Source: an uncultured Prevotella sp.
GTDB taxonomy: Bacteria; Bacteroidota; Bacteroidia; Bacteroidales; Bacteroidaceae
Reading direction: 5' to 3'
DNA length: 54,483 bases
NCBI GenBank assembly: GCA_964450065.1
Contig: CAYVGR010000001.1
Coordinates: 1 to 54,483 of the forward strand
This document shows positions 32,132 through 50,332 of this stretch, in pieces; the first letter of the stretch is position 1; the number at the start of each line of letters is the position of its first letter. A model generated the notes under the pieces. It had not been told where the DNA came from and did no database searches. It worked only from the letters and a program-made list of their open reading frames with translations. Position numbers and translations under genes: made by a program.

Positions 32132-32769
32132 TGGAGATAACACAATATCATTTAGAGAAAATTAAAGAAGTTAAAATGAACTTCTTAAAAGATAATTCAA
32201 TGTTAACGCCAAAGCAAATGGAAGAAGTTAAATTAGTGCCAGATGAGATAGATAGAGACGCATTTGTAACTTTAAAGAAAATTCAAGATAATATAAAAGA
32301 ATTTGCAGATCTAGGAAGAAATCTATTAATAAAATCAAGTATAACTGGTAATGGCAAAACAGCTTGATCAATAAAACTTATGTTAGCTTACTTTGAAGAA
32401 ATATGATTAGAGACGGATTTTGAACCAAAAGCTTTCTTTCTACATGTTCCAACAATGTTTAATAAATTGAGAGAGAATATATCAGAAAGAAATGAATACA
32501 CTGCTTTTGTAAGAGAGAATATAGAGAAAGCAGATATTATAGTTTGAGATGAAATAGGAGTTAAAGATTTAAGTGCTTTTGAATCATATAACTTCTTAAG
32601 CTATATCGATAGAAGAATAAATTTAGGTAAAGCTAATATATTTACAACAAACTTAGAAGAGGAACAATTACTACAAGGTTTAGGAGATAGATTATATAGT
32701 CGTATAGTTGAAAATTCTAAAATAATAGAACTAAAAGGACCAGATAAGAGAAGGATAAATAAATGATAG
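32131..32769 (+). CDS. DnaC/IstB-like helicase loader ATPase (code 4)
   Basis: TGNGKT, IIV[W]DEIG, IFTTNL, GDRLYSRI, GPDKR; mostly missing from the ORF track. Confidence 0.88.
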
Positions 32770-34070: not shown

Positions 34071-35050
34071 TGAATCAATTAAGAGTAAGAGATCGGGTAA
34101 TTAACACATCTGTAGAGAATATAGTAAATAGATCTAAAATAGAAGCAGCATCTATAGGAATAAATAAATTAAAACATATACGAGAAATAAGAGACTCTCT
34201 TCAAGTCACATGTCCTTTCCATAAAAATGGGCAAGAAAGAAAACCATCCTGTGGAATAGTATTAAAAGATACTACAAATAGTAGAGGAGAAAAAGTACCA
34301 GTAGGTACTTTTCACTGCTTTGCTTGCGGAATGAAAGGGCCATTAAGTAGATTTATATCAGGAGTCTTTAATGCTGAGACGGATGAGTTTGGAGAGAAAT
34401 GAATATTAGATAACTTCGACTCAGATGAATTTAAAAATACTAGAAATTTATTAAACTTACCATTGAGTACTAAAACAGAGACAGATAAAATAGAATATGT
34501 AACAGAGAGCGAATTAGCTAAGTACAGGTATTATCATCCATATATGTATGAAAGAAAACTAACCAATGAAATAATAGAGAAGTTCGATATAGGGTATGAT
34601 AAGGATACCGATTGTATAACATTCCCAGTTTATGATGAATTCGGAAGATGTGTATTTGTAGCAAGGAGATCAGTCAAAACTAAATACTTTAATTATCCAT
34701 CAGGTAGTAAAAAGCCTATTTATGGATTAGAAAAGATAGATAAAGACACAAATGCGGTATTAGTAGTAGAGTCATTTCTAAATGCATTAACAAGTTGAAT
34801 ATATGGGCAGCCCGCTGTAGCATTGATGGGTTTAGGTTCCGAAGATCAATATAATATTTTAAGACAAAGCAGCATAAAGAAATTTATATTAGCTTTCGAT
34901 GGAGATGAGCAAGGAGATAAAGGAAGAGAAGATTTTATAAAAGCTCTAAAACCATATAAGTTAATTAGCTATGTACGGGTACCAAGAGGTAAAGATATAA
35001 ATGATCTAACAAAAGAAGAATTTGATTCATTGCAGGAGTACTGAACTTAA
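34070..35050 (+). CDS. dnaG: DNA primase (CHC2 Zn finger + TOPRIM) (code 4)
   Basis: CPFH..E..PS..HCFAC; VVESFLNAL; AFDGDEQG; KDIND. Confidence 0.9.
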
Positions 35051-35144
35051 AATTAGAAGGTATATAAAATGTAAGACAATCCCTAAATAAGTTTTACACA
35101 TAAAAAACATAAAAAAAATAATAAAAGAAGGAGACCATAAAAAT

Positions 35145-35885
35145 ATGGCAAAAGAAGTTAAACCATTATCATGGGCAGAATTAAAGAAAATAGCAGAAAA
35201 TAGACAAGCAGGTGGAGGTACAGCATTCTTTGCGTTAAAAAATGACGGAGATAAAGCATTCGTTAGATTAATGCATGAGAATGTAGACAGTATCGAGGGA
35301 TTCTTCACACACTTGGTACAAGAAACTGGAAAGCAGTACAAAACAAGAGTAGCGTGCTTAAAGCATAATGGAAGCAATGGCTCATGTCCATTATGTGATT
35401 CAGGAGATAGACCAAGAGTAAGAATTTATCTACATATGCTAGAATATGAACTAGATGAGAACGGTAACTGGAAAACAGATGAGGCTGGGAATATTGTAGG
35501 TACACCAAAAGTATTCGATAGAGGAGATCAATTCACAAGCAAGATAGAGACAATTGCATCTAGAACACCTGTATTACATTCTAAGGTATTTGAGATCATT
35601 AGAACAGGAGCACGAGGAAGCACATCTACTGATTACAATTTCTGGCCAACAGATTATACTGCAGAAGAGCTACCATACACAGATGAGGATCTGAAATGGG
35701 AATCAGCTTATGGAACAATGTTAAAAGTTATGACAGCAGAAGAGCTAGAAGGATTAAATAATAAGCCAGCAGTAACGAAAAGAGAAATATCAGCAGGACC
35801 ATCAGCACCAGCAGCAGGGCCAGCAACACCTAGATCATTTGGATCAGCACCAGCAGGGTTCACTGCACCACCAAGACGTATTTAA
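35145..35885 (+). CDS. Single-stranded DNA-binding protein (gp32-like)
   Basis: FFALKNDGD..VR..H..C..CPLC..RTG..T.Y; position in replisome cluster. Confidence 0.75.
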   Translation: MAKEVKPLSWAELKKIAENRQAGGGTAFFALKNDGDKAFVRLMHENVDSIEGFFTHLVQETGKQYKTRVACLKHNGSNGSCPLCDSGDRPRVRIYLHMLEYELDENGNWKTDEAGNIVGTPKVFDRGDQFTSKIETIASRTPVLHSKVFEIIRTGARGSTSTDYNFWPTDYTAEELPYTDEDLKWESAYGTMLKVMTAEELEGLNNKPAVTKREISAGPSAPAAGPATPRSFGSAPAGFTAPPRRI

Positions 35886-35904
35886 TAGATAGGAGATAAT
35901 TTAA

Positions 35905-38280
35905 ATGAGTAAAAAATCTTTAATAGGATTACCTACAAGAAGGAACACAGAAGCATTAAAAATTAATGCATTATCTGCGACTAAAAAAAGAAAATCATTT
36001 AAATCAAATTCCATTCTAGATAAAATAAACGAAATATCTACAACAGTGCGTGCTTATTTAGGGAAGTACGCAAAAGATATTGAAGTTATACGAGATATAG
36101 ATACTTTTAATAAATATATAGACAAAGCTATAGAAAAAGGATATCTAGCGATAGATACCGAAACAGATGGGTTAGATGTAATTAATGATAAGATAGTAGG
36201 ATTATGCTTTTATGTTCCTGGACATAAGGCAGCTTATGTACCAGTAAGACATAAGAGTTATATAACAGGGACATATTTACCTAATCAGTTAAGTATTACG
36301 AATATAAAACCAGGATTAGATAGAATAAAAGAAAACAAAGTTAAAATAGTATACCATCACGGTAAATTTGATATGCGAGTAATATATAATAACTTTAAAG
36401 TAAAGTTAGGATGTTATTGAGATACTATGATCGGAGCAAAGATTATAAATCAGAACGAATCTGCTGCTTTAAAATTTCAACATGCTAAGTATGTAAACGA
36501 TGCGGAAAAAGAGTACGACTTTGGAACATTATTTAGAGGAATAGATTATAAATTAGTACCGATTGAAGTAGCAGCACTGTACGCAGCTTCAGATCCATTG
36601 ATAACATGGGAATTGCATGAACACCAAAAAAAGGTATTCAATCAACCTGGTAATGAGAATATGTATAAACTATTCAGAGATATAGAAACACCTTTAGTAG
36701 AAGTAGTAACAGATATGGAGAATACTGGGATTAGGTTTGATTTCGAATTAGCAGAAAGATTATCTAACAAGTATCATAAATTATTAGATAAAGCAGAAAA
36801 AGCAGTATATGCAGAAATTGATAAATATTCAGATCAGATAAGAACTTATAAAATAATGAATCCAGACCATAAACTATCAGATCCAATATTATTATCATCA
36901 CCAGCTCAATTAGCAACATTATTTTATGACATATTAAAATTAGAGTCACCAGATAGTAGAAAACCAAGAGGAACCGGCGAGGATATAATCAAAGGATTAA
37001 ACCTACCGATGGCATCAGCATTATTAGAGTATAGGGGAATACAGAAACTATTAACTACTTATATAGACAAGTTACCTAACTCAGCTAATAAAGCTACAGG
37101 AAGAATCCATGCATCATTTAATCAAGTGGGAGCAGATACTGGAAGATTTAGTAGCAGTGATCCTAATTTACAGAACATACCTTCTTATAATAAAGAAATA
37201 AGACTATTATTTAGAGCAAGTGAGGGACATAAATTAGTAGCATCTGACTTCTCTCAACAGGAACCTAGAGTATTAGCACATTTCAGTGGAGATGAGCATA
37301 TGATAGATGCATATAATAAAGGACAGGATTTATATGCAACAGTAGCTTCTAGAATATATGGTAGACCATATAATGAATGCTTAGCTAGATATCCAGATGG
37401 GTCACCAAATCCAGAAGGAGCGAGATTAAGAGAGAATACAAAATCTATTGTATTAGGACTAATGTATGGAAGAGGACCTAGATCTATAGCAGAGCAGACT
37501 GGCCAGACGTTAGAAGAAGCACAGCAAACAATTAATACATTCTATCAAGGATTTCCTAAAGTGAGGCAGTGGATGGATGATACAGTCACATTTGCAAAAA
37601 AATATGGATACGCTGAAACATTATGGGGAAGAAGAAGATACATACCAGACATTCAGTTAAAGAAATATGAGCTTACTTTAGAATCAGGTAATAGACCAGT
37701 TAATTTTAATCCTTTATTTGGATTTGAAACAGTTAAAGATGATAGTCAAGAGAAGTTAGAGTACTTTGAAACAGCTTTAAATAACGCGAGATACTTCAAC
37801 GATAGGATCAGATTGAAACAAGAAGCAGAAAATAATGGTATAAAAGTAAAAGACAATAATGGGTTTATAGCAGAGGGAGAAAGACAAGCAGTTAATAGTA
37901 GGATACAAGGAAGCTCTGCAGATATGTCAAAAAGAGCTATGTTACTAATAGCTAAAGATGAAAGAATGAAAGAAATGGGATTCAGATTACTTTTAGCTGT
38001 ACATGATGAGTTAATTGGAGAAGTCCCAGAAGAGCATGCAGAAGAAGCAGCTCAAAGGTTAAGTGATCTAATGATAGAGTCAGCTTTACCAGAATGCTCT
38101 GTAGCAATGAAGTGTGATGCAGAGATAACAAGATGTTGGTATGAAGGCGATTATATCAACTATATAAGAGACGAATATAAGAAGAGTAATGATATAGAAG
38201 AAGTTATTTATAATCACGAAGAAATAGACAGAGAAATAATAATAGATATACTTCAAAATAATAGAAATACTTTATTTTAA
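35905..38280 (+). CDS. polA: Family A DNA polymerase with 3'-5' exonuclease (code 4)
   Basis: DTETDGL, KFD, Y[W]DTMI, TGRFSSSDPNLQNIP, DFSQQEPR, KSIVLGLMYG, IQGSSAD, VHDEL. Confidence 0.95.
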
Positions 38281-38283
38281 AAA

Positions 38284-38320
38284 TATAGAGTTTAGTAGAT
38301 AACCTCTATAAAAAAACTAC
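38284..38320 (+). promoter_or_regulatory. preQ1 class I riboswitch aptamer
   Basis: P1 TATAGAG/CTCTATA, loop UUUAGUAGAUAAC, A-tract, then CUAC pairing with loop GUAG; same architecture as the B. subtilis queC aptamer; upstream of yhhQ. Confidence 0.8.
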
Positions 38321-38352
38321 TTAAGTATATATTTAGCTATCGAATATATACA

Positions 38353-38398
38353 GCGGAGTTCGATCTCGAAATCCTCCGCAAATAAAAAAAATAAGGAG
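38353..38398 (+). promoter_or_regulatory. Second preQ1-I-like aptamer overlapping the yhhQ RBS
   Basis: P1 GCGGAG/CTCCGC, loop UUCG..AUC, A-tract ending in UAAGGAG. Confidence 0.55.
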
Positions 38399-38405
38399 AA
38401 TTTAC

Positions 38406-39215
38406 ATGGGTAAATTAAAAAACTTTCTGAAAAGAAAAATAGAAGAGAAAAAATTATCTCTTTCACAATTAACAACAGCTAGCATATTATTAGGTATGGT
38501 AGCAATATATATTACAAGCGTAATATTATATAATATTTTCGAATACAAGTTTTTCGAATTCACAACATTGGGATGGAGTATATTAGGTAATCCAATAATA
38601 ATAGGAATGGGAGCAGGGACACTAATATCTTGGATATCCTTCTTATTAATGGACGTTATTACGGAAGTATGGGGGAAGAAAAAAGCAATTAGCATATTTA
38701 CAATGGCGATGATTATTAGTGTAGTAACATCATTATTTGGATTGATAATAGTTAACGTGGGAACAGATTCTTACGGAAGTGCTATTGAGCTTATTTTCGG
38801 CACGCATATAAGAGTAACCTTAGCTTCAGCTTTTGCTTTTTGGGTAGGTAACTACGTAAATGCAGTAATAATGCACGTGATGAAAGTAAGAGCAGAAGAT
38901 CAGGGCGAAGGGTATAATGGAAAATTATTCGCACTAAGAGCTACAACATCAACATTATTTGGACAGTTTGTAGACAACGCACTATTCCAGATTTTAGGCT
39001 TAGCACCTTTTGGGGTAGGGTATATGTTAGCATCACCTTTTGGGTGGACATGGGGAATGGTATTTGGATCAATTATAGTAGGAACAATATTAGAGTTTTT
39101 GTTAGAAGCTGTATTAGTTCCACTAGTGACTATACCTTTATCTAATGTATTGAAAAGAAAGAAAGAAAAAGAAGATAATGATAACTTCTTACAACCGCAA
39201 ATAGAAACTGAATAA
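38406..39215 (+). CDS. yhhQ: Queuosine precursor transporter (YhhQ/VUT family)
   Basis: FLLMDVITEVWGKKKA, R..LAS..AF..G..N, R...ST..GQ.VD..LF; multiple TM helices. Confidence 0.9.
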   Translation: MGKLKNFLKRKIEEKKLSLSQLTTASILLGMVAIYITSVILYNIFEYKFFEFTTLGWSILGNPIIIGMGAGTLISWISFLLMDVITEVWGKKKAISIFTMAMIISVVTSLFGLIIVNVGTDSYGSAIELIFGTHIRVTLASAFAFWVGNYVNAVIMHVMKVRAEDQGEGYNGKLFALRATTSTLFGQFVDNALFQILGLAPFGVGYMLASPFGWTWGMVFGSIIVGTILEFLLEAVLVPLVTIPLSNVLKRKKEKEDNDNFLQPQIETE

Positions 39216-39229
39216 GAGAGAAAAAGATA

Positions 39230-39874
39230 ATGAAAATATTAATAACAGGAACAAGCTTAGGTATAGGCAAAGGTATAGCAGATAAATTTCTAGAGCAGGG
39301 ACATAAAGTATACGGAATTGATAGATTAGATAGCACTATCGATAACGATAATTATGTACATATCAAACAAGATATAAGATCTAAAGATTTACCGGAGTTA
39401 CCAGATATAGATATACTTATAAACAATGCAGGAACTCAAAACGAAGATGATATAGATATCAACTTAAGAGGAACTATAAATATAACAGAGAAATATGGAA
39501 TACATTCCAATATAAAATCAATTTTATTTATAGCTTCAGCTTCAGCTCAAACAGGAGCAGAGTTTCCAGAATATGCAGCAAGTAAAGGCGGAATGGTTGC
39601 TTATATGAAAAATGTAGCATTAAGAATAGCGGAATATGGAGCTACATCTAATAGCTTATCTCCAGGTGGGGTAACTACAGATTTAAATAAACATATTATC
39701 GAAACACCTGAATTGTGGGAATCAGTTATGTCAGAAACATTACTACCTAAATGGGCGAATGTAGAAGAGATAGCAGAATGGGCATATTTTACAACCGTTA
39801 TTAATAAATCAATGACTGCTCAAGATATTCTTATAGATAATGGAGAAGCAGCCAAATCTAATTTTATTTGGTAA
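39230..39874 (+). CDS. Short-chain dehydrogenase/reductase
   Basis: TGTSLGIG, NNAG, S..YAASK, SPGGV.T. Confidence 0.92.
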   Translation: MKILITGTSLGIGKGIADKFLEQGHKVYGIDRLDSTIDNDNYVHIKQDIRSKDLPELPDIDILINNAGTQNEDDIDINLRGTINITEKYGIHSNIKSILFIASASAQTGAEFPEYAASKGGMVAYMKNVALRIAEYGATSNSLSPGGVTTDLNKHIIETPELWESVMSETLLPKWANVEEIAEWAYFTTVINKSMTAQDILIDNGEAAKSNFIW

Positions 39875-39880
39875 TGGTAG

Positions 39881-39907
39881 AGGGCAGAGATAAGATCTCT
39901 GTCTTTT
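39881..39907 (+). terminator. Intrinsic terminator-like hairpin after SDR
   Basis: AGGGCAGAGA-TAAGA-TCTCTGTCTTTT. Confidence 0.6.
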
Positions 39908-39934
39908 ACTTAATAAAGAACAAAGGAGAAATAA

Positions 39935-40165
39935 ATGTTACCGTACTTAGGATATATAGCATCAGTAGTAGTTTTAATATCATTTATACTAAAGGACATT
40001 ATATGGATTAGAGCAGTTAATTTTATAGGCTGCGTATTATTTGTATTATATGGTATTTTCTTTTTAGGGGATATGGCTACAGTTTTCCTGAATTCCAGTG
40101 TTGGGATTATTCAGGTATATTATATAGCAACAATTTTAAACAAAAAACAAAATAAAGAGGAATAG
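39935..40165 (+). CDS. Small 3-TM membrane protein (YgjV-like)
   Basis: GYIASVVVLISF.LK....IR.VN.IG..LF..YG. Confidence 0.7.
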   Translation: MLPYLGYIASVVVLISFILKDIIWIRAVNFIGCVLFVLYGIFFLGDMATVFLNSSVGIIQVYYIATILNKKQNKEE

Positions 40166-40618
40166 ATGTATAAGATAGAATTTGCAAAAGAAAGCGATTT
40201 CGATAAAATATATGCTTTATTTGGAAAGAATACAGACCTACTAGGACGACCATTTCCTGCTGCTATTAGAGAAGCTCTAAAATTAAATAAAGTTTTAATA
40301 GTACGTGGAGAAGAGCAAGACTCTTGCTTCGGCTTCTGTAATTTTAATGTACTTAAAAGAGAGTTTAGGACGACAGTATATGAGATAGCAGTAGATGAAG
40401 CAGCTAGAGGGCATGGACTAGGGCGTAGAATGATTGAATTCTTAGAGGAAAAATATAAGAGACCTATTCAAGCTAAATGCGTTAAAGGCTCACCTGCTGA
40501 GCTCTTTTGGGAGAGAGTGGCAGAGTTAATAAAATATGAAAAAGGCAAGAAAAGAGAACTATCAGTTTTCTTAACAAAGAAGTATAGAAAAGAGATAAAG
40601 AAAAGGAGTTTGATATAA
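40166..40618 (+). CDS. GNAT acetyltransferase
   Basis: IAVDEAARGHGLGRRM acetyl-CoA-binding motif; A..FW. Confidence 0.88.
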   Translation: MYKIEFAKESDFDKIYALFGKNTDLLGRPFPAAIREALKLNKVLIVRGEEQDSCFGFCNFNVLKREFRTTVYEIAVDEAARGHGLGRRMIEFLEEKYKRPIQAKCVKGSPAELFWERVAELIKYEKGKKRELSVFLTKKYRKEIKKRSLI

Positions 40619-41544
40619 TGATAGATTTATATTTTGCAGGATCTGGAACTAAGGAAGCAGCAGATAGAATTAGGGAAAGAAATTGCAATCAATTATTAAG
40701 TCAGCTGAATGAGCGTAAAAAAGTATTAGAATGGGTTCAATATTTAAAAGATAACCCACAATGTACAAGTAAATTATTTATAGATTCAGGAGCATTCTCA
40801 GCACATACAAAAGGAAAAGAAGTAGACGTAGATGAATATATAGAGCTTTTAAATGAGATAGATGAACAAGTATATATATTTGCTCAAGTTGATAAGATAC
40901 CAGGGGAGTTTGGAAAACCAAAAACAAGAGAGCAATTAGAAGATGCTCCGAGAGAGTCATGGGAAAATTACTTATATATGAAAGATAGGGTAAAATCAAG
41001 AGATAAATTGTTACCAGTATTCCACCAAGGGGAAGATTTCAAGTGGTTAGAGAATATGCTAGAGTATAGACATGAGGATGGATCACCTATATGGTATATA
41101 GGAATTTCACCAGCTAATGATGTATCAACAACCATGAAAGCAAAATGGCTACAGAAAGTTTTCAGGACAATTAAATATTCAAGCAACCCAGGAGTAAAAA
41201 CACATTCCTTTGGAATGACATCATTACACTTATTAGAAACATTCCCATTCACTTCAGCAGACTCAACAAGTTGGATATTAACTGGAGCAAATGGAAGTAT
41301 TATGACTAAATATGGAACAGTAACTGTTTCAGATAGGCAATTACAAAGACCTGAGCATATATATAATAAATCAACTCAATTACAGAATGTGATTAGAGAC
41401 GCAGTGCTAGAAACAGGATATGATTTAGACGATCTAGTTAAAGATGGAAATAAGAGAACTCTATATCATGTAGATTATTTAAAAGACTGGTGTGATTCTT
41501 ACCAATTTAAAGGATTAAATACATATAAAAAATCATTAATATAA
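40618..41544 (+). CDS. TGT-fold base-exchange enzyme (DpdA-like candidate)
   Basis: LYFAG, FIDSGAFS, D.IPG, LPVFHQGE, HSFG, SADSTSW. Confidence 0.75.
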   Translation: MIDLYFAGSGTKEAADRIRERNCNQLLSQLNERKKVLEWVQYLKDNPQCTSKLFIDSGAFSAHTKGKEVDVDEYIELLNEIDEQVYIFAQVDKIPGEFGKPKTREQLEDAPRESWENYLYMKDRVKSRDKLLPVFHQGEDFKWLENMLEYRHEDGSPIWYIGISPANDVSTTMKAKWLQKVFRTIKYSSNPGVKTHSFGMTSLHLLETFPFTSADSTSWILTGANGSIMTKYGTVTVSDRQLQRPEHIYNKSTQLQNVIRDAVLETGYDLDDLVKDGNKRTLYHVDYLKDWCDSYQFKGLNTYKKSLI

Positions 41545-41557
41545 AGGAAGATAAAAT

Positions 41558-42754
41558 ATGAAAGTAATATTAAATACAGATAAATTTAAAAATCTTACAG
41601 GAAGGGTAGTAAAAGGGGCAGGTAATCAAAACGATGCTTTAATTACATCATCTGTAACAGTGGAAGTAAAAGATAAAACATTATCATTAATGACAACTGC
41701 AGGTAATCATACAATGAAAGTATGGTTAAATGATGCAACAAAAGAAGAAGTAAATTTCGCAACAAGTTTGAATGCGGATAAATTAACAAGATTGACAAGA
41801 TTAACAACAGTAGATAAGATTACATTATTTAGCAAAGATGAGGATATTATATTCGAAGGAAATGGGGTATATACATTAGCACAACTATTAGATGAGGAAG
41901 GAAACTTAGCTAGAGTACCAGAATTAGAATATGATGAAGATACATTAGAATTAGAGTTAACTGTACCTACAAAGATATTGAAAAAAGCCCTAAACTTTAA
42001 TAAATTAAGTGTAGGATTAAACGTAGATGTAGCAAGTTATGGATCAGCATATTACCTTACCAATGAGCATGTATTGACATATGATGATGTCACATCCGTT
42101 ATGACAAAAGGTAAAATGACAGATAAACCATTTAAGTTGTTGATTAATTCAGAGGTTATGGATCTTATCGAAAACATACAATCAGAGAACACAAAGATTA
42201 AAGTATATAAGAATGTAGTTAAATTTATCGGAGATGATATTGAACTAACAGCTTTGGTTAATGATAGAGTTAGCTTATTCCCAGAGGAAGCATTATTAAA
42301 TACATATTCAAGTGATTACGATTATTTATTTACAGTAAGTAGATCAGATATATTAGAAGCATTAGATAGGTTATCGATATTCTTAGAAATTGGTGAAAAG
42401 AATAAAATTACAATGATATTCAATGATGATCAATTATTACTAAGCTCTAATAGTAAGACAGGGAATGAGATGCTATACTCTAAAGAAGTAATAGCTTCCG
42501 AAAACCCATATATACAAGCAGTAGATTTACTAGACTTAAAAAGACATATCACATCACACTCAGGTGAGACTATTAAACTAAGATATGGTAATGATAGAGG
42601 GTTATTAATAGAGAATAATGAAGTTACTCATCTATTACCTTACTACGATTCAGAGGAAGATGAAGAAGATATAAATATTGATATAGAAGAAAGAGAAGAA
42701 AGCACCTTACCAGAAGAGTATATGGAAGATACTATTCCATTTGAAATTAATTAA
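41558..42754 (+). CDS. dnaN: DNA sliding clamp (DnaN/beta-like) with acidic tail
   Basis: Three-domain beta-clamp pattern: MKVILN..VEVKDKTLSL.T; FTVSRSDILEALDRLS; HLLP. Confidence 0.8.
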   Translation: MKVILNTDKFKNLTGRVVKGAGNQNDALITSSVTVEVKDKTLSLMTTAGNHTMKVWLNDATKEEVNFATSLNADKLTRLTRLTTVDKITLFSKDEDIIFEGNGVYTLAQLLDEEGNLARVPELEYDEDTLELELTVPTKILKKALNFNKLSVGLNVDVASYGSAYYLTNEHVLTYDDVTSVMTKGKMTDKPFKLLINSEVMDLIENIQSENTKIKVYKNVVKFIGDDIELTALVNDRVSLFPEEALLNTYSSDYDYLFTVSRSDILEALDRLSIFLEIGEKNKITMIFNDDQLLLSSNSKTGNEMLYSKEVIASENPYIQAVDLLDLKRHITSHSGETIKLRYGNDRGLLIENNEVTHLLPYYDSEEDEEDINIDIEEREESTLPEEYMEDTIPFEIN

Positions 42755-43248
42755 TGTCAAATAAAGTAGAGAAGAAAAAAAGAGATAATTTAGGAAAAAG
42801 ATTCGAAATTAGGTTCTTAAAAGATTTTTCCAAGATAGAAAATATATCAATAGATAGATTAAAAGACCCGATGGGTATGTATCGAAATGTTAAGAATATA
42901 TGTGACTTTATAGCATATAAGTATCCGTATATATATTACATAGAGACGAAATCAAAGAAAGGGAATACATACCCTCTCTCTTCTCTAACTCAATACGATG
43001 ATCTAATAGAGAAGAAAGGAATAAAAGGAATAGCTAAAGTAGTTATAATCTGATTTAGGGATCATGATAAAGTAGTAGCTATACCAATAGAAGAAATAGA
43101 AAGGTTAAAAGAGTTAGATTATAAATCAATAAATGTTAAAATGATTGGAAAAGAAGAATATAATATAATAGAGATACCGATTCAAATGAAGAGGGATCTA
43201 CCTTATGGGGATTATAATATTATAATAGAAAATAAAAAATTATTTTAG
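42754..43248 (+). CDS. RecU-like Holliday junction resolvase (code 4)
   Basis: GKRFE..CDF..YIETKS..QY..L..II[W]F..KSI. Confidence 0.7.
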
Positions 43249-43263
43249 ATAGGAAAATAAACA

Positions 43264-43815
43264 ATGCGAGAATTCGAAGAAGATAAAATTAAAGCAGCGC
43301 TACAGGCAGTGAATACAAATAGCACTTATGTAGAGAATATAGTAAATGATCTAGTTAAGAAATACACTTCAGAATTAGATGAGGTATTAGATAATATAAA
43401 GATTATATTACAGGATGCAGATAATCCACCAACTAATGCGGAATTAGATAGTATGGCTCTCAGAATACCTGTAGTATTATATTTCATGACAGATGCTCAA
43501 GAACTAGTAGGGATATATGAAGATGTATCTAAAGCTATTAAAGACGACGCGTATTACAATGTACATATGCAAGCAACTGGCACAATGGCTGAGAAGCAAA
43601 CACAAGCTCAATTAGCAGTCATGTATGAAACAATCTTAAACAATACATACTCTAGGGTATACAAAATTATACAGCAAAAAACAAAAGCAGGGTATGAATT
43701 ATTAGCATCTATAAAGAGAGTAATGTATAATAGGTCTAATGATGCTAATTTATCAAATAATAGTTTTGCAAATAGAATAACACCTACATACAGTAGAGGA
43801 GAAATAGATGAGTAA
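43264..43815 (+). CDS. Helical protein, possible recombination mediator (UvsY-like)
   Basis: All-helical; overlaps recA start; function inferred from synteny only. Confidence 0.35.
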   Translation: MREFEEDKIKAALQAVNTNSTYVENIVNDLVKKYTSELDEVLDNIKIILQDADNPPTNAELDSMALRIPVVLYFMTDAQELVGIYEDVSKAIKDDAYYNVHMQATGTMAEKQTQAQLAVMYETILNNTYSRVYKIIQQKTKAGYELLASIKRVMYNRSNDANLSNNSFANRITPTYSRGEIDE

Positions 43816-44938
43816 TTTAGATGTATTATTTAGAAATTTAAATAAGAAATATGGCGACGGGACAGCAGTGCTTGGACCAGTAGAAAGGCAATATAGTAGG
43901 ATCCCGTTTTCAAGCCCAAGAGCTAATTATATGCTTTATGGGGGAATACCTACAGGGAGGTTAATAGAACTATCAGGGCCAGAAAGTTCAGGTAAAACAA
44001 CCACAATGCTAGACTTGATAGCTAATTACCAGAGAATGCCTGAAGCAAGAGAAGTAGTAATATTTGATAACGAGCAAACATTCGATTACGAGTACGCAGC
44101 AAGGCTCGGCGTCAATGTAAAGAAAATACGAGTGATAAGTCCAGATGCTATATCGGCTGAAGCAGCTTTTGATATACTACTAGACCTGTTAAAAACTGGA
44201 GAAGTAGGATTATTAGGAATAGATAGTATAGCTACATTAGTACCGCAACAGATAGTAGACGAATCATCAGAAAAATACCAAATGGGCGGTATAGCTAAAT
44301 CATTAACAACTTTTGTAAATAAAGCAATCCCATATATGAAAAAATTTGATACAACTATAATTGCTATTAACCAAGTAAGGGATGATATGGCAAATATGTA
44401 CAATCAATTTACAACTCCAGGTGGAAGAGCATTCAAGCATGCATGTTCGGTTAGAATACTATGCAGCATGGGTAGATTCATAGATGAGAATGGTAACCCT
44501 GCAACTAGGTCATTAGCTAATCCTATAGGACATTTTGTACAATTAAGAGTATTGAAATCAAAAATATCTAGACCAGATAGGAAATTAGGATATTACACCC
44601 TAAACTACATAACAGGAATAGATTATTTAGGTGATACGATAGATACAGCAATCGAGTTTGGATTTATAAGACAACGAGGAGCTTGGTTTGATATAGTTGA
44701 CCCTAAAACAGGAGAAGCAGTAATAACAAAAGATGGCGAAGTCTTAAAATTCCAAGGCAGAAAAAGATTACAAGAATATTATGAGCAGAATAAAAAAGAA
44801 TTTCAGAAATTACATAAAAAGGTAAACGAAGAAATAGTAAAAACAGAAAAAGCAGAAGACTTATTAACACCAGAAGAGTTTGATGATGACAACGAAGAAG
44901 AAACAGCAATAGAGGCAGGAGAGCAAGCAAATGAATAG
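43808..44938 (+). CDS. recA: RecA/UvsX recombinase
   Basis: GGIPTGRLIELSGPESSGKTT, IDSIATLVP, INQVRD, TPGGRAFKH, GAWF. Confidence 0.95.
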   Translation: MSNLDVLFRNLNKKYGDGTAVLGPVERQYSRIPFSSPRANYMLYGGIPTGRLIELSGPESSGKTTTMLDLIANYQRMPEAREVVIFDNEQTFDYEYAARLGVNVKKIRVISPDAISAEAAFDILLDLLKTGEVGLLGIDSIATLVPQQIVDESSEKYQMGGIAKSLTTFVNKAIPYMKKFDTTIIAINQVRDDMANMYNQFTTPGGRAFKHACSVRILCSMGRFIDENGNPATRSLANPIGHFVQLRVLKSKISRPDRKLGYYTLNYITGIDYLGDTIDTAIEFGFIRQRGAWFDIVDPKTGEAVITKDGEVLKFQGRKRLQEYYEQNKKEFQKLHKKVNEEIVKTEKAEDLLTPEEFDDDNEEETAIEAGEQANE

Positions 44939-45539
44939 AGATATAAAGCAAGAGTTCTTAGATATATATAATACTCATATAAAAAGAGACGGAAGCGAAT
45001 CACTACTTAAATGGTTAGAGGAGAGTGATTTCTTCACTGCTCCGGCTTCAGGAAGATATCATTTAGCGGAAGAGACTGGACTAGTCCAACATTCAATAAA
45101 TGTATATAAAAGATTTAGAGACTTATTAGTGACTGAGTATGGAGAAGATTATGTAGTAAATACAATATCAGAAGAGACAGTAGCTATTATCGGCTTACTG
45201 CATGATATATGCAAAGTAAATTTTTATACTAAAGGCACTCGAAACGTTAAAAACGAAGCAACAGGTCAATGGGAAAAAGTAGAAGTTTGGAATGTAGATG
45301 AAAAAATGGTTTACGGCCATGGGTCTAAATCAGTATATATATTGATGAGATTTATATACTTAACACATGAGGAAGCTACAGCTATTAGGTTTCATATGGG
45401 TGGATTTGAGTACCCTGGTACAACTTTCGTAGAACCTGGACTAACTAAAGTATATAACGAATTCCCATTAACTTTAATGATTCATCTAGCAGATATGCAA
45501 GCATGTTACTTAGATGAGGTATATAAAGGTGATAAATAA
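44931..45539 (+). CDS. HD-domain phosphohydrolase
   Basis: FFTAPAS..H..GL..HS, LLHDICK, GHGSKS, AIRFHMG, HLAD. Confidence 0.9.
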   Translation: MNRDIKQEFLDIYNTHIKRDGSESLLKWLEESDFFTAPASGRYHLAEETGLVQHSINVYKRFRDLLVTEYGEDYVVNTISEETVAIIGLLHDICKVNFYTKGTRNVKNEATGQWEKVEVWNVDEKMVYGHGSKSVYILMRFIYLTHEEATAIRFHMGGFEYPGTTFVEPGLTKVYNEFPLTLMIHLADMQACYLDEVYKGDK

Positions 45540-46026
45540 ATTAATATCAGATCAGATAGATAGTATTAGAGATATAGAAGTACAGACAAGTAAGGGTATA
45601 AAACCCTTAGGGGAAGTAATTAAAGCCGAAGGTGATATAGAGTTTATAGCAAGTAAGGATAAGTATATATTTGAGATAAACTATCTAGAGCCAGGTCAAG
45701 ATTACCTATTCAAGTTCAATCAAAGAAATGAAAATATCCCCTTATCTATTATGGGAGGCAGAGTAATAGAGAAAGGGGATAATTTTATTAAAGTGAATTT
45801 AAAAGGTTATTACATAGAAGAAAGTAAGCACTGTTTAAGAACATTAAAGAAGTTAGAAACAGATATAGAACATAAAATGAAAATGAATGAAGAAAGCTTA
45901 AAAGCCTTTAATATAGATAAAGAGATGGTAATTAAAACCAGCATAGCGGAGATCGCAAGCTTTTATGATACAATAAGGTACGAGGGCGATATATCAATAT
46001 ATGATATAGAAGAGGTGATAAAGTAA
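45514..46026 (+). CDS. Hypothetical protein
   Basis: ORF coupled to neighbours. Confidence 0.55.
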   Translation: MRYIKVINKLISDQIDSIRDIEVQTSKGIKPLGEVIKAEGDIEFIASKDKYIFEINYLEPGQDYLFKFNQRNENIPLSIMGGRVIEKGDNFIKVNLKGYYIEESKHCLRTLKKLETDIEHKMKMNEESLKAFNIDKEMVIKTSIAEIASFYDTIRYEGDISIYDIEEVIK

Positions 46027-46367
46027 TGAACATGCGAGCATATTCCGATAAGCAGGAGAAAGCAGTAGCAAGAGCTATCGGAGGTAGGCAGACAGCTAAT
46101 AGTGGTGCAACTCCATACCAAAAAGGAGATGTATTAACAGACCATGTATTAGTTGAATGTAAGACAGTTACTAAACCGCAGGGTTCAGTATCAATAAAAA
46201 AAGAATGATTAGAAAAGAATCGGAAAGAAGCATTTGCAACCGGTAGATATCATCACATGTTAGCATTTAATTTTGGACCTGGGGAGGAAAACTATTATAT
46301 AATAACAGAAGATGAAGCTTCAGGGTATATAGATTATATAGAGAAGTTAGAAAAAGGCGAAATATAG
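46026..46367 (+). CDS. Hjc-like PD-(D/E)XK resolvase/nuclease (code 4)
   Basis: QEKAVA..GG..NSGA..KGDV..VECKT..E[W]LEK..EA. Confidence 0.75.
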
Positions 46368-46376
46368 GAGAGATAA

Positions 46377-47399
46377 ATGTCAGTAAATTTAGCAGTTAAA
46401 TATAGACCAGAAACCATACATGAATTAGTAGAACAGGATGCAATTAAAAAAATACTAATACAGCAGGTAGAATTAGGGAGATATAAAAACTCATACTTAT
46501 TCACCGGTAGCGCTGGAACAGGGAAGACAACCCTAGCTAGAGCTTTTGCAAAAGCTATTAATAATAATTTAGGTAGACCAATAGAGAAAGACGTAGCTTC
46601 TAATAATAGTGTAGAAGATGTACGAAAGTTAATATCAGAATCTCAAATGAAAGCACTAACTGGAGAGTATAAAGTATATATATTAGATGAGTGTCACATG
46701 TATTCTACATCAGCATGGAATGCTATGTTAAAATTGCTAGAAGAGCCACCTGCAAAAACTATATTCATATTTTGTACAACAGATCCACAAAAGATACCCG
46801 GCACTATTTTAAGTAGGGTGCAAAGATTTGACTTCCAAAGAATAAGTACAAGAAATATAATTAAAAGATTGGAATACATAATACAGGAAGAAATTAAAAA
46901 AGGCAGCGAATACACTTTCACAGAAGATGCTTTAGAATTTATAGCAAAAACAGCAGAAGGTGGAATGAGAGATGCTATCACCATGTTAGAAAAATGCTTA
47001 AGTTATACAAAAGATATTAATCTAGATGTAGTTGTTAAAGTTATAGGATCAGCTAATTATGAAACAATGCTAGATTTAACCGAGTATTTATTTGAGAGGA
47101 AAGAAGTATACACCTTAGATCTTATTGATAGGTTATATAGAGAAGGCATAGATATAAAGTTATTCATTAAACAATACACAGAGTTCTTTTTAGATATATT
47201 AAAATATAAACTAACTTCTAGTTTTGATTTAATAAAAATACCGAGTACATTTAAAAATAGATTAGATAGCTTCACAGCATATGAAAGAGACTTTATATTC
47301 TATGTATTAGATAATCTAGTTAAGCTGAATACAACTATTAAATACGAGCAGAATCCAAAAGCAATGGTAGAGATGCAACTATTACTAATGAGTAAGTAG
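46377..47399 (+). CDS. dnaX: Clamp loader ATPase, DnaX gamma-like
   Basis: LAVKYRP, GTGKTT, DECHM, NAMLKLLEEPP, TILSRVQ, GGMRDA. Confidence 0.93.
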   Translation: MSVNLAVKYRPETIHELVEQDAIKKILIQQVELGRYKNSYLFTGSAGTGKTTLARAFAKAINNNLGRPIEKDVASNNSVEDVRKLISESQMKALTGEYKVYILDECHMYSTSAWNAMLKLLEEPPAKTIFIFCTTDPQKIPGTILSRVQRFDFQRISTRNIIKRLEYIIQEEIKKGSEYTFTEDALEFIAKTAEGGMRDAITMLEKCLSYTKDINLDVVVKVIGSANYETMLDLTEYLFERKEVYTLDLIDRLYREGIDIKLFIKQYTEFFLDILKYKLTSSFDLIKIPSTFKNRLDSFTAYERDFIFYVLDNLVKLNTTIKYEQNPKAMVEMQLLLMSK

Positions 47400-47401
47400 A
47401 T

Positions 47402-48232
47402 ATGATAGGACAAAAGCAGATAATAGAAAATATAAATAATTTAATACAGAATGATAAGTACCCAAAATTCACAATAATAATAGGAAGGGAAGGGTTTGGC
47501 AAAAAGACCTTAGCTAGATATATAGGTAAGAAGTTAAAATATGATGCATTATTTTTTGAAAATAAAATAGACGATATTAGATCAAGTATAGATATAGCTT
47601 TAAGGCATAATGGTAATCTATTATTCATATTTAAAGATGCTGAAGGAATGTCAATTCAAGCAAAAAATGCTTTATTAAAACTAGTTGAAGAACCACCAGC
47701 AAACATAAGAGTTATATTACTAAGCACCGCTAAAGAACATTTACTACCTACAATATTGAGTAGAGGGCATTTAATAGACCTATATTATTACACAAGAGAA
47801 GAATTATTAGAATATTGCGAAACTAAAAATATTCAAGGAGAGTATGCTTCCAAACTCTTAGAAGTATCAAACAGCCCTGGTGAAATAAATCAAGCTATAG
47901 ATAATAACATAGATGATATAATAGAATTATCTCATAAGATAGTAAATAATATCCATGTGGTTAGTTTACCTAACCTATTAAAAATAGTGAAAGATTTAAA
48001 ATATAAAGAAACAGACAAGGGACATGATTTTAATATATTCTTAAATAGTCTAAGGAACGCAGTAAAGAATTTTATAGTAAACAATAATCTGGACTATGAA
48101 AATACTTTTAGATATACTAAAATATTAGAATATATAGCAGAATCAAGTAACGCGTTAAATTATAAACAGTCAAATAAAAGGTATATAATAGATAAATTAT
48201 TTATAGATATATATACAATATGAGGCGGATAG
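47402..48232 (+). CDS. holB: Clamp loader delta-prime (HolB-like)
   Basis: MIGQ..G.EG.GKKT..NALLKLVEEPP..LLPTILSR; ends TGA GGC GGA TAG. Confidence 0.8.
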
Positions 48233-48236
48233 ATAG

Positions 48237-49151
48237 ATGGAATTATGAGATTTAAAAAATAATATAATTAATAAAACTATACCAAAACTTATTATAATGA
48301 CGGGAGAAGAGATAGGCTTAATAAGAGCTTATGTAGATGAAATATCACGATCTCTCAATGTTGAGCCAGCTTATGCAGATAGTGTAATTCAAGCAGTGAA
48401 TAACTCTAAGATGAAAAGTTTAGTAAGCAAGAAAGACAAATTAGTTATAATAAGGGACGATAAAGCATTCTCACAAGACCCTAATCTATGGCACCATTTA
48501 AAGAGATTAAGTATACATATAGTATTAATATATACAAGTATAGATAAAAGATCTAAATTTTACAAAACATTTAAACCATATATAGTATATTTCGATAAAA
48601 TGGATACAAGTATACTTAAGCAAGTTCTAAAAAGTAAAATAAATTTATCGGATAAAGCATTAGATTGATTAATAGAAGCAACAAATGGGGATTATAGTAG
48701 ATGTTTATTAGAGATAGATAAACTACTATTATTTGAAGAGCAGGATCATACGGATCTATTTAGAGAGTTTGTAAAGGAAGGAGTTATATATGCAGATATT
48801 CCAGATATAGTATTTGACTTTGCAAACGCGTTGTTAAATAGAAATGTAACACAGACATTTGCTTTAGCTGAGATATTGAAATTAGGAGTAGATCATATAT
48901 TACAAATATTGACAATATTATATAATAATTTTAGGAATGTATTATCGGTACAATTAAGTAATAAGCCGACAGAGAGTAGTACAGGATTAAAAGAAAAGCA
49001 GATTAGAGCTATACAATATAGGGTAGGAAAGTACTCAGATTACGAACTTATTCAGATAGTTAAATTTCTAGGAGAATTCGATCTAGACTTGAAAAGAGAA
49101 GGATTTGATTACGATATAGCTTTAGATTATATTATTAGTAAGGTGTTATAA
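48237..49151 (+). CDS. holA: Clamp loader delta (HolA-like) (code 4)
   Basis: GEE..LI; KSLV..KLVIIRD; DKRSKFYK; LEIDKL; IVFDF; joined across TGAs. Confidence 0.78.
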
Positions 49152-49274
49152 ATGAGGATAACATGCAAAATGTGCGGAAGGAAACTAACAAATATAGAAT
49201 CTAGATTACGGGGCTATGGGCCAGAATGCGCTAAAAAGATATATCGAAATTTAAAGAAAAGAAAGATAATATAA
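49152..49274 (+). CDS. Small Zn-finger protein (DUF6011-like)
   Basis: CKMCGRKLT..ES..RGYGPECA. Confidence 0.75.
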   Translation: MRITCKMCGRKLTNIESRLRGYGPECAKKIYRNLKKRKII

Positions 49275-49283
49275 GAGGAAGAG

Positions 49284-50330
49284 ATGGCGAAAATATTACT
49301 ATATACAGATCCACATTTCTGCTCCGCTACTTCAGTTATTAGGGGCAAGGGGGATAAGTATTCAATAAGAATAGAAAAAATATTAGATACTTTGAGATGG
49401 ATAGAAGAAGAAGGAAACAAAAGAGGAGTAGATGATATAATATGTCTAGGAGACTTTTTTGATTCACCTAACCTAAACGCAGAAGAAATAACAGCAATAA
49501 GCAGCATGGATTTAAGTAAACATAAATTTATAGTAGGAAATCATGATGCGGTTAGAGAGGATTTATCATTTAATTCTATTAACATATTTAATACATCAAA
49601 GATATATGATAAACCTGGTGTAGAGATATACGGAGACACTCAAATAGTAATGCTTCCATATACTTTAGATAGCGCTAGAAAAGAACTAAAAGATATATTA
49701 GATGAATTAGGTATAGACGATGATAAGAAAATAGTAATACTATCACATAATGATATTAAAAATGTACAGTATGGTAAAATAACATCGAGCTCAGGGTATG
49801 ATAAAGACGATATAATAGCTAATTCAGACCTATTTATAAATGGACATATCCATACAGGCGGCTGAGTTTTTGATACTATATTAAACTTAGGGTCTGTGAC
49901 TGGTGTGAATTTTAATAATAATGCATTTTATTGAAAACCTGTAATAGGTATATTAGATACAGAAACATTAGAAATAGAATTAGTAGAAAACCCACATGCA
50001 TTTTTATTTTATAAGTTATATTTCAAGGAAGTGGGAGAGCTAAAAGAATTTATTGATGGACTAGATAATAGTAAATATAATATATTGAATGCTAAAATGC
50101 CATATACAGAGGTACCAAACGCATCGGAAGTATTAAAACAAAGTAATCTTTATTATAGTAGAATAATAAGTGATTATTTAGTTGGAAATAAAAACAAAGA
50201 AGTAAAAGAAAGCGTAGAGCTTATAGATACATCCATGAACTATTACGATAGATTCAAAGAATTTGTAAAAATATCTTATGGAGAAAATGAGTTATTTTTA
50301 AATGAGATAGATAAAATAGCAGAGAGATAA
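49284..50330 (+). CDS. sbcD: SbcD/Mre11 (gp47-like) nuclease (code 4)
   Basis: DPH, LGDFFD, VGNHD, SH, GHIH, LGS. Confidence 0.88.
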
Positions 50331-50332
50331 AT

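Follow-up and report, generated by a model that had tools for sequence, protein, structure and literature searches.

Short terminal peptides of DNA-modifying enzymes as candidate charge-swapped ligands of a phage-encoded beta sliding clamp

The stretch of DNA analysed here (the window, 54,483 nucleotides, 30% GC) comes from a phage of the Dp-1/Flasso/phiCTP1 kind, which encodes its own beta clamp and clamp loader. TGA is read as tryptophan: open reading frame cover of the plus strand rises from 0.78 to 0.94 when TGA is taken as a sense codon, and tryptophan is the commonest residue of homologs at 14 of the 23 TGA columns with data. All genes described below lie on the plus strand. The family A DNA polymerase PolA (35905..38280; 791 amino acids, one TGA-encoded tryptophan; PF00476, PF01612) is followed by a Vut_1/YhhQ-family transporter (38406..39215; PF02592), likely an importer of the 7-deazaguanine precursor, a short-chain dehydrogenase (SDR; 39230..39874; PF00106) and a small membrane protein (39935..40165), recognized from its sequence with a weak Pfam match only. 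Then come a GNAT acetyltransferase (40166..40618; PF00583), the 7-deazaguanine DNA transglycosylase DpdA1 (40618..41544) and the DnaN beta sliding clamp (41558..42754). The clamp loader is encoded downstream by DnaX (gamma/tau; 46377..47399; Pfam, PHROG 5846), HolB (delta-prime; 47402..48232; PF13177) and HolA (delta; 48237..49151; PF21694).

DpdA1 is homologous over its full length to Dp-1 gp7 (49% identity, 100% of length) and shares 50% identity with the Flasso protein and 32% with that of 9g (76% of length). Top matches in a structure search were TGT proteins, in agreement with its TGT barrel. Residues D56, D92, H196 and D215, invariant in 106 homologs, are candidates for the catalytic acidic residues and for the histidine absent from DpdA2. 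In Dp-1 DNA, dPreQ1 is found at about 1.7% of guanines (DpdA1 literature: PMC6884629, 10.1101/2023.04.13.536721).

Four of these proteins carry a similar short peptide, and all four strings lie exactly where the original prediction had placed them. PolA starts with MSKKSLI at 35905, its KKSLI (residues 3-7, 35911-35925) preceding the exonuclease domain, which starts near residue 60. GNAT ends in IKKRSLI (KRSLI at 40601-40615) and DpdA1 in TYKKSLI (KKSLI at 41527-41541); both are true C-termini, because both stop codons are TAA. The KMKSLV of HolA (48408-48425) corresponds to residues 58-63 only with TGA as tryptophan (start at 48237). K-x-S-L-[IV] occurs four times in the 68 genes of the window against 1.2 expected, and three times at termini against 0.048 expected, which none of 20,000 resamplings reached; the odds are overstated, because the motif was picked after being seen, and the real test is its conservation in orthologs. 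Codons of the three terminal copies differ. The AGGAG ribosome-binding site of dpdA falls on the Arg-Ser codons of GNAT, and this overlap may fix the two residues. A second motif-like peptide of PolA, RNTLF on a C-terminal extension (38263..38277), is present in 1 of 48 distinct PolA ends; it is weak and may be due to chance.

Conservation in orthologs, proposed beforehand as a check, was found, in a form broader than the private K-x-S-L-I/V that had been claimed. The family-wide motif is [K/R/Q]-x-x-L-[F/I/W] or, in its basic form, [KR]xxL[FIW], and Ser and Ile do not belong to its conserved part. Leu stands at position 307 in 105 of the 106 DpdA homologs and Met in one, and position 308 is always hydrophobic (F74/I18/W10/L4). 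The first motif position, 304, is K57/R14/Q13 with 22 others, the second is mostly K45, N23 or R10, and Ser occupies position 306 in only 34. The linker preceding the motif varies among homologs; residues 294-308 of DpdA1 are predicted to form a coil outside the predicted fold (pLDDT 65 in the last block). The tail stands at the end of 54 of 73 distinct DpdA ends and of none of 203 distinct ends of precursor enzymes and transporters, the background being 70/2352 for other phage ORF ends and 13/1393 for cellular ORFs. Loci of 31-48% GC, and one of 61%, retain it, and the four DpdA-QueF fusions examined have it internally, directly after the DpdA domain. DpdA of phiSM and of Bipper are without such a tail; phiSM, an unrelated phage with a host-like Asn clamp, has a gp53 that ends in canonical QVNLF.

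The tail is also found in related phages on proteins of unrelated folds: N6/N4, C5, Dam and class I SAM methyltransferases, PAPS reductase, DUF5591, DUF6884, radical SAM, GT2, CxxCxxCC (DpdM-like) and ligase-N-like proteins. GNAT carries it in 4 of 6 distinct ends in the loci; three of four non-self matches end in IKRSLI and the fourth in KKKLINLGE, and some relatives have in the slot of GNAT the CxxCxxCC protein with the same tail. Among the remaining neighbours of dpdA, the transporter shows it in 0/36 homolog ends, the small membrane protein in 0/5 and the dehydrogenase in 0/8 by the strict Leu-type pattern, with a conserved NFIW/NFVW end that fits a looser pattern (5/5). No published description of such tails was found. 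A second C-terminal tag in the same phages, acidic-[VI]-F, is common to SSB and DnaB.

In 33 distinct complete PolA N-termini an early hydrophobic pair recurs, often L-F, L-L or L-I. Most orthologs show just this pair, and only some also have a basic or Gln residue three positions ahead of Leu; phages whose DpdA motif begins with Gln have Gln in PolA as well. Dp-1 has AQKGLF, L204 AQKSLF and L221 SQKSLF. As to HolA, its string is present as claimed, but not in the K-x-S-L-I/V register: the five residues in register are M-K-S-L-V, and the first Lys of KMKSLV is displaced outward by one residue. This register resembles Q69-A-M-S-L-F of E. coli delta, and the core common to all copies is [KR]-S-L-[IV]. 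A profile of 34 phage HolA sequences matches delta 3zh9 (E 4.7e-17), its columns 62-63 aligning to the F-M pair of 3zh9; they are hydrophobic in about 30 of 34 sequences (column 62, F13/L10/I5/M4; column 63, I9/F8/V6/L6). HolA thus combines homology to delta with a hydrophobic plug at the position of Leu73-Phe74.

DnaN has the three-domain beta-clamp fold (pLDDT 89; Foldseek TM 0.78-0.80 to E. coli beta), and a profile search matched 22 PDB sequences, all of them clamps (E 4e-21 to 4tr6). Only the proline is kept among E. coli pocket residues R152, H175, N320, Y323, P363 and R365, which correspond to V158, V178, D323, D326, P361 and Y363 in the window. Asp323 (codon at 42524) replaces Asn320; the pocket also has Asp157, and an acidic tail runs from Asp364 (42647). 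When pocket columns of 38 phage and 53 cellular clamps were compared, the N320 position was Asp in 30/38 of the former and Asn in 47/53 of the latter, R152 was retained in 4/38 versus 50/53, and position 151 was acidic in 30/38 phage clamps. The six residues starting at position 364 carry a net charge of -2.0 in phage and +0.65 in cellular clamps. Asp at the N320 position occurs also in 3/32 Bacillota clamps. N320 is listed in the Gln subsite in the review PMC11139829, where the bacterial pocket surface is described as positive and the motif flanks as negative. Judged from these residues, the phage clamp has acidic character at pocket sites that are neutral or basic in bacterial clamps.

DnaN (residues 1-372) was modelled in complex with DpdA 274-308, together with three controls. 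The score was 0.64 and that of the best control 0.00, a result that may be due to likeness to the many solved clamp-peptide complexes; approximately 116 of the 157 solved pairs and 2 of the 215 mismatched ones reach the score mark, as counted from our own alignments. Model runs share at least 60% of contacts, with a partner pLDDT of 52-54. Only DpdA residues 302-308 dock, and they do so in the canonical clamp pocket, at the equivalents of E. coli T172-L177, P242, V247, N320 and V361-L366. Lys304 is placed beside Asp323 and touches clamp residues 323 and 361-363. The model agrees with the proposed docking of the DpdA peptide on DnaN. Together with ortholog conservation and confinement to DNA-acting enzymes, it favours a motif of the clamp-binding type, as had been suggested; the suggested match between its basic variant and the phage's own DnaN agrees computationally with the Asn320-to-Asp exchange and the acidic clamp tail.

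We consider it probable that the K-K/R-S-L-I peptides are clamp-binding motifs in a charge-swapped form, directed at the beta clamp of the phage itself, with which they would form a charge-swapped pair. Leu-Ile of the peptide would plug hydrophobic subsite I, and Lys, in the canonical place of Gln, would sit in subsite II, facing Asp323 and the acidic clamp tail. DnaX, HolB and HolA would load the clamp through the Leu62-Val63 plug of HolA, and PolA would stay attached to it through the N-terminal copy. DpdA1 and GNAT would use clamps at or behind the fork, guanine being swapped for imported 7-deazaguanine. The GNAT fold, its position just upstream of dpdA and the common tail suggest that GNAT could acylate this inserted base on DNA; acetylation, as originally proposed, is likewise a reading of gene context. 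Such a substrate, the preference over the host clamp and the coupling to replication are what we infer. Modification restricted to newly made phage DNA, as originally envisaged, has a counter-example in 9g DpdA, which modified about 18% of E. coli plasmid guanines without its phage clamp (PMC6884629). Only tentatively, and with more doubt than confidence, do we extend the picture to an orthogonal clamp code, in which the clamp and all its clients would be charge-swapped (Gln/Asn to Lys/Asp, basic to acidic rim), host partners shut out and host forks ignored by the modifiers, DpdA and GNAT would write a new acyl-preQ1 mark during copying, and the code would have flipped more than once in the family.

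It is rather unlikely, in our judgement, that the peptides bind phage and host clamps alike through Leu-Phe/Ile, with the basic residues being lineage drift or a help in DNA binding. According to PMC11139829, Leu-Phe suffices for binding to the bacterial pocket and Gln is dispensable, so that the phage peptides may also bind the host clamp. The variable first position of DpdA points the same way, as do DpdA of 9g, CAjan, Iggy, RHEph05 and PSASB_03, which end in x-x-x-L-F without a basic residue there. Against it, several pocket positions shifted together towards acidic, and the host-type Q-x-x-[LM]-F is absent from 187 ORFs of four phage contigs. Covariation speaks on both sides. Of the Asn clamps 8/11, and of the Asp clamps 0/34, are paired with a DpdA motif that has Gln at position 1; this pattern depends on only 2-3 independent switches and is not significant once kinship is corrected for (independent-pairs sign test, p 0.5-1). 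All Gln switches lie on Asn branches, and one sister pair, L008 (Asn, QRSLI) and L124 (Asp, RRSLI), is nested among Asp clamps. Exceptions are R or T motifs with 3/11 Asn clamps, non-basic residues with 6/34 Asp clamps, and the partner enzyme of L008, which retains KKKLF beside its Asn clamp; in a scan of 1409 tests two clade-marker columns outrank position 323.

Docking on a hub of the phage other than the clamp (polymerase, SSB, helicase or packaging motor), by which modification would be tied to a different step, appears improbable. The tag on SSB and DnaB shows that other hubs exist, and Cui et al. describe insertion by DpdA as taking place after replication (10.1101/2023.04.13.536721). 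Yet the motif sits at the known clamp-plug site of HolA and on PolA itself, the model puts the tail in the clamp pocket, and dpdA is found near the clamp gene: within the same 20-kb locus in 106/132 dpdA loci, many of the remaining loci being short, and in 7/8 cultured non-Firmicutes phages examined. An incidental similarity, arising from Lys-rich AT-biased termini, ribosome-binding-site overlap or the folding needs of each enzyme, is more improbable still and already largely refuted by conservation. In its favour, a GC content of 30% makes Lys, Leu and Ile common, the Shine-Dalgarno sequence of dpdA overlaps the copy in GNAT, and the motif was defined post hoc. The differing codons, the persistence of the tail across GC contents and inside fusions, its absence from neighbouring non-DNA enzymes and its place outside the predicted DpdA fold all argue against it.

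Clamp binding by charge-swapped tails would provide a mechanism by which modifying enzymes reach enough of the phage genome soon enough while sparing the chromosome of the host. DpdA3 and DpdA4 failed in E. coli (Cui 2023, 10.1101/2023.04.13.536721), and clamp dependence may bear on this failure. If true, a beta-clamp code that occurs naturally without Gln and with reversed charge would broaden a motif regarded as almost universal among bacteria, and replisome engineering would gain an orthogonal pair of clamp and peptide. The tail could also flag DNA-acting phage proteins of obscure role, such as this GNAT and the DUF6884, PAPS-reductase and radical-SAM proteins.

The bacterial beta-clamp motif is QL[SD]LF, or Q-phi-x-[LM]-[FL], in Pol II, Pol III alpha, Pol IV, Pol V, Hda and MutL, and AMSLF in delta, which PMC11139829 names as the sole known natural ligand without Gln. 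The phage peptides resemble it in five-residue spacing, Leu at position 4, Phe or Ile at position 5, the same predicted pocket, and location on flexible termini or an exposed delta loop (DpdA coil, PolA N-terminus, HolA loop). They differ from it in position 1, Lys in PolA, GNAT and DpdA and Met in HolA, in position 2, Lys or Arg in the window instead of an aliphatic residue, and in basic rather than acidic flanks. Unlike bacterial clamps, phage clamps mostly have Asp for Asn320 and lack Arg152, do not conserve His175 and bear an acidic tail; unlike the bacterial clients, the proposed ones of the phage are DNA base-modifying enzymes. The clamp gp45 of T4/RB69 is likewise encoded by the phage and has a short terminal motif of its own on unrelated phage proteins, the C-terminal LDFL-type tails of gp43, gp33 and gp55 (PMC9690074); there, however, the clamp is trimeric and PCNA-like, the motif is different, and the clients named are polymerase and transcription factors, not base modifiers.

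A second enzyme acting on modified DNA has precedents. DpdM and DpdN methylate or formylate dPreQ1 (Cui 2023, 10.1101/2023.04.13.536721), and phage Mu Mom (PMC13219725) is a GNAT acting on DNA, but it uses Gly-tRNA and modifies adenine; GNAT beside dpdA would similarly decorate the inserted base. Literature titles and abstract openings gave no acetyl-dPreQ1 and no DpdA-linked GNAT, and the word 'clamp' is absent from the main texts of Hutinet 2019 (PMC6884629), Cui 2023 and the Mom paper.

The replication modules of Dp-1, MS1, Flasso and phiCTP1 have the same gene set as the window phage (PolA, DnaN, DnaX, HolB, HolA, RecU, RecA), and both states are represented in culture: Dp-1, MS1 and Flasso combine a Gln motif with an Asn clamp, phiCTP1 has an Asp clamp, and the window phage has a Lys motif with an Asp clamp. 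Dp-1, MS1 and Flasso synthesize their own precursor, whereas the window phage instead has the importer, SDR, GNAT and TGA as tryptophan. In eukaryotes, DNMT1 is recruited to PCNA by a PIP box in maintenance methylation. The phage enzymes would likewise be DNA-modifying enzymes held on a replication clamp by a short motif, differing in that the clamp is a phage beta clamp and the reaction a base exchange.

Four short peptides occur in the window at the positions given in the original prediction: KKSLI at the N-terminus of PolA and at the C-terminus of the TGT-fold enzyme, KRSLI at the C-terminus of the GNAT protein and KMKSLV in HolA. TAA directly follows both C-terminal copies. The predicted pattern K-x-S-L-I/V fits the PolA, GNAT and TGT-fold enzyme termini, but the HolA peptide is out of register. 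It has the layout of the Q-A-M-S-L-F peptide of delta, and when 34 phage HolA proteins are combined into a profile, positions 62-63 line up with the F-M pair in the delta structure 3zh9 (PDB). Terminal K-x-S-L-[IV] was seen three times in the window against 0.048 expected, an excess that chance does not explain, with the caveat that the motif was chosen post hoc. Because their codons differ, the three terminal copies converge as peptides, and the Arg-Ser codons of GNAT overlap the ribosome-binding site of dpdA. The terminal peptide feature is real. Two other ends, RNTLF at the C-terminus of PolA (1 of 48 orthologous ends) and NKKLF of RecU (1-2 of 39), were treated as probable chance occurrences.

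The peptides belong to a replication and modification block (32131 to 52105, + strand) encoding DnaC, DnaB, DnaG, SSB, PolA, a Vut_1 importer, an SDR, a small membrane protein, GNAT, the TGT-fold enzyme, DnaN, a RecU-like resolvase, RecA, DnaX, HolB, HolA and SbcD/SbcC-like proteins. The TGT-fold enzyme, with this fold by structure comparison, is DpdA1; it is 49% identical to gp7 of Streptococcus phage Dp-1 and 32% to DpdA of phage 9g. The phage window has 30% GC, and nearly all genes are on the + strand. TGA codes for Trp in both structural and replication genes (window 1-54483; contigs C110, C17 and C19 of the same bin): this reading raises ORF cover in the window from 0.78 to 0.94, and Trp is the most frequent homologous residue in 14 of the 23 window TGA columns with data. 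Genes of all other loci were read under table 11.

Median GC in the bin containing the contig is 0.467 against 0.30 in the window; the ORFs of the bin look Bacteroidales-like to us, and table 11 is the code of its dnaN. Since the bin looks Bacteroidales-like with GC 0.47 against 0.30, the phage is probably misbinned, and the GC gap together with the table-11 dnaN ruled out the bin's cellular clamp as the host clamp. C110 overlaps the start of the window by 54 identical bases, and C17 and C19, with a matching GC of 0.31, probably belong to the same phage. C19 carries 20 tRNAs and a tmRNA; two tRNAs with a TCA anticodon lie at 15138-15232 and 18317-18391. A tandem array of about ten paralogs (160-310 aa) with a common N-terminal segment resembling IxxNxWEEIY occupies C17:12687-20518 (bin G000), and another copy is present on C110. 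As an out-of-sample set, these three contigs gave one loose motif match without clear meaning and no further terminal K-x-S-L-[IV]; they hold few recognisable DNA-acting enzymes, and the null neither helps nor hurts the motif case much.

Homologs redefine the motif. In the 106 aligned among the 120 DpdA homologs listed, Leu307 is conserved in 105, position 308 holds Phe (74), Ile (18), Trp (10) or Leu (4), and position 304, the first of the motif, is Lys (57), Arg (14), Gln (13) or another residue (22). The predicted structure shows the DpdA tail as coil outside the TGT barrel. Three of the four non-self GNAT matches end in IKRSLI. PolA orthologs retain a hydrophobic pair near the start, and most lack a residue at motif position 1, since Met lies too near; PolA of Dp-1, Flasso and the loci L204 and L221 has the full Gln-form N-terminus. 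Across these DpdA, GNAT and PolA homologs Ser and Ile are lineage details, the strict K-x-S-L-I/V was abandoned, and the family motif is [K/R/Q]-x-x-L-[F/I/W].

The motif is confined to DNA-acting proteins. By family, the tail is found on 54 of 73 DpdA, 4 of 6 GNAT and 5 of 14 DpdM-like proteins (more if a longer trailing stretch is allowed), against 70 of 2352 other ORFs as background. It is present on 0-1 of 32-75 ends each of DnaX, HolB, HolA, RecA, DnaN and SSB, and on none of the 203 ends of QueC, QueD, QueE, QueF, FolE, Vut_1, SDR and the small membrane protein. In fetched loci it also ends unrelated proteins: N6/N4, C5, Dam and other SAM methyltransferases, PAPS reductase, DUF5591, DUF6884, radical SAM and GT2 proteins, a DpdM-like CxxCxxCC protein and a ligase-N-like protein; these were picked for annotation because of the tail, so that the by-family counts are the unbiased contrast. 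Endolysin-like, DnaJ-like and GIY-YIG carriers look like background. DpdA-QueF fusions of about 525-540 aa with C-terminal QueF occur in five loci (L089:989-2563, L208, L211, L212, L224), and the four examined retain the motif internally, between the two domains.

The stand-alone ligase-N-like (Nlig-Ia) protein of 120 aa (L068:5431-5802 and its cluster) has a [KR][KR]xLF end in 20 of 38 distinct ends, and that of MS1 (L266:8971-9342) carries the motif N-terminally instead, as MAQRTLF; no such gene was recognised within the window. A second C-terminal tag, acidic-[V/I]-F, is seen on window DnaB (KEDIF, end 34070), on the product of gene 31376-32131 (GVDYF) and on SSB in relatives (L002-L131). 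Window SSB lacks this end, and window DnaN carries an additional tail, acidic and disordered, that finishes in DTIPFEIN (end 42754) and resembles a bacterial SSB C-terminus. In phages 9g, PSASB_03, CAjan, Iggy and RHEph05 (L027, L268, L271-L273), dpdA lies at most three genes upstream of the phage clamp gene and DpdA ends in xxxLF (LQDLF, QMELF, VMELF, IQELF and EQRLF). Because of this proximity and these ends, a link between DpdA and the clamp seems to be a general trait of DpdA1.

Window DnaN has a beta-clamp fold (TM 0.78-0.80). In the review PMC11139829, subsite II (the Gln pocket) of the bacterial clamp is given as H175, N320, Y323, V344, M362, P363, M364 and R365, with positive pocket surroundings and negative motif flanks, and delta as the sole known ligand without Gln; Asn320 is part of the hydrogen-bond network of the Gln pocket, according to PMC6511837. 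We compared 38 phage clamps, sampled via loci found by DpdA and DnaX queries, with 53 cellular clamps, 32 from around a Lachnospiraceae genome and 21 from around the bin's phylum. The pocket is changed in the phage clamps. The N320 column (323 in window DnaN) is Asp in 30 of 38 phage clamps and Asn in 47 of 53 cellular ones, with Asp also in three Bacillota clamps; R152 is kept in 4 of 38 against 50 of 53; H175 is not conserved in the 38 and is kept in 43 of 53 cellular clamps; the net charge of residues after position 364 is -2.0 against +0.65. DnaN as a single query gave no relatives in viral_contigs, nor did alignment A1 give a usable pattern, and an Asn-type clamp as search seed gained one near-duplicate and nothing else. 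In larger phages (L137-L139, L146, L255, L258, L262, L263) DpdA tails are xKKLF or KKSLW and this column of the clamps is K, R, T, W or N, which suggests another pocket solution or misalignment.

Docking of the peptides in the clamp pocket, as originally predicted, was obtained as a model for the DpdA tail. The complex of DnaN 1-372 with DpdA 274-308 scored 0.64 against 0.00 for the best control; 116 of 157 solved pairs and 2 of 215 mismatched ones reach the mark used, counts that are a rough guide with our own alignments. The runs share at least 60% of contacts (partner pLDDT 52-54), and residues 302-308 alone dock. In the model, Leu307 and Ile308 contact 175-180, 246, 249 and 359-361, which the alignment assigns to subsite I, and Lys304 contacts 178, 323 and 361-363 of subsite II. 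Because many clamp-peptide complexes have been solved, the pass may reflect likeness to these rather than binding. On balance, we consider it likely that the peptides bind the phage clamp.

Whether clamp and motif vary together was judged at position 323, fixed from the alignment and the model before partners were tabulated. Both genes are present in 56 non-redundant loci, 45 of which enter the two-by-two table with Asn or Asp at this position; the other 11 (five DpdA-QueF fusions, one motif-less, five whose divergent clamps carry K, R, T or W) stand outside it. Gln at motif position 1 accompanies an Asn clamp in 8 of 11 cases and an Asp clamp in none of 34. Fisher's test (p 8e-7) was rejected as evidence, the rows being related. 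On trees the Gln state takes 2-3 changes, in the group with Dp-1, MS1 and Flasso, plus L008, whose sister L124 has an Asp clamp and an Arg motif; all changes to Gln go with Asn and none against. An independent-pairs test was not significant (p 0.5-1), being unable to reach significance with 2-3 Gln changes, and a crude rate estimate gives about 0.03 for an Asn switch on each of the two clamp-tree branches. Among 1409 column tests 323-Asn came third, alone in the top ten in covering all eight Gln cases. In the unrelated phage phiSM, with a host-like Asn clamp, gp53 ends in QVNLF and DpdA has no tail; the partner enzyme of L008 still has KKKLF. The Gln/Asn pairing thus has exceptions and amounts to a tendency rather than a rule, and we are rather doubtful of a full orthogonal clamp-motif code.

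We propose that the loader would open the clamp through HolA Leu62-Val63, that PolA would hold it by its N-terminus, and that DpdA1 and GNAT would use clamps located at the fork or behind it. The 7-deazaguanine precursor would be imported, because the four contigs of this incomplete phage genome have no QueC/D/E/F or FolE. The Vut_1, SDR and small membrane protein genes (38406-40165) lie between polA and dpdA; SDR occurs in 6 of 56 loci, always with Vut_1 and always without Que genes, a hint of a salvage reaction that may act on queuine. GNAT occupies the slot of the DpdM-like enzyme in relatives and shares its tail; from this, and by analogy with DpdM/DpdN (Cui 2023), our best guess is that GNAT would acylate dPreQ1 on DNA. 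Confinement of modification to new phage DNA is the weakest of the original predictions. In E. coli without a phage clamp, 9g DpdA with Gat-QueC modified 18 +/- 10% of plasmid guanines (PMC6884629); 9g DpdA, overexpressed in that assay, might use the host clamp by its LQDLF end.

Searches of the open-access literature, supplements aside, turned up no paper that describes phage DNA modification tethered to a clamp or a basic beta-clamp motif, and Hutinet 2019, Cui 2023 and the 2026 Mom paper do not use the word "clamp" in their main texts. The window phage has its replication module in common with Dp-1, MS1, Flasso and phiCTP1. The motif class and phage-encoded clamps are already known; what the window adds to them is the clamp side of a putative charge-swapped code.
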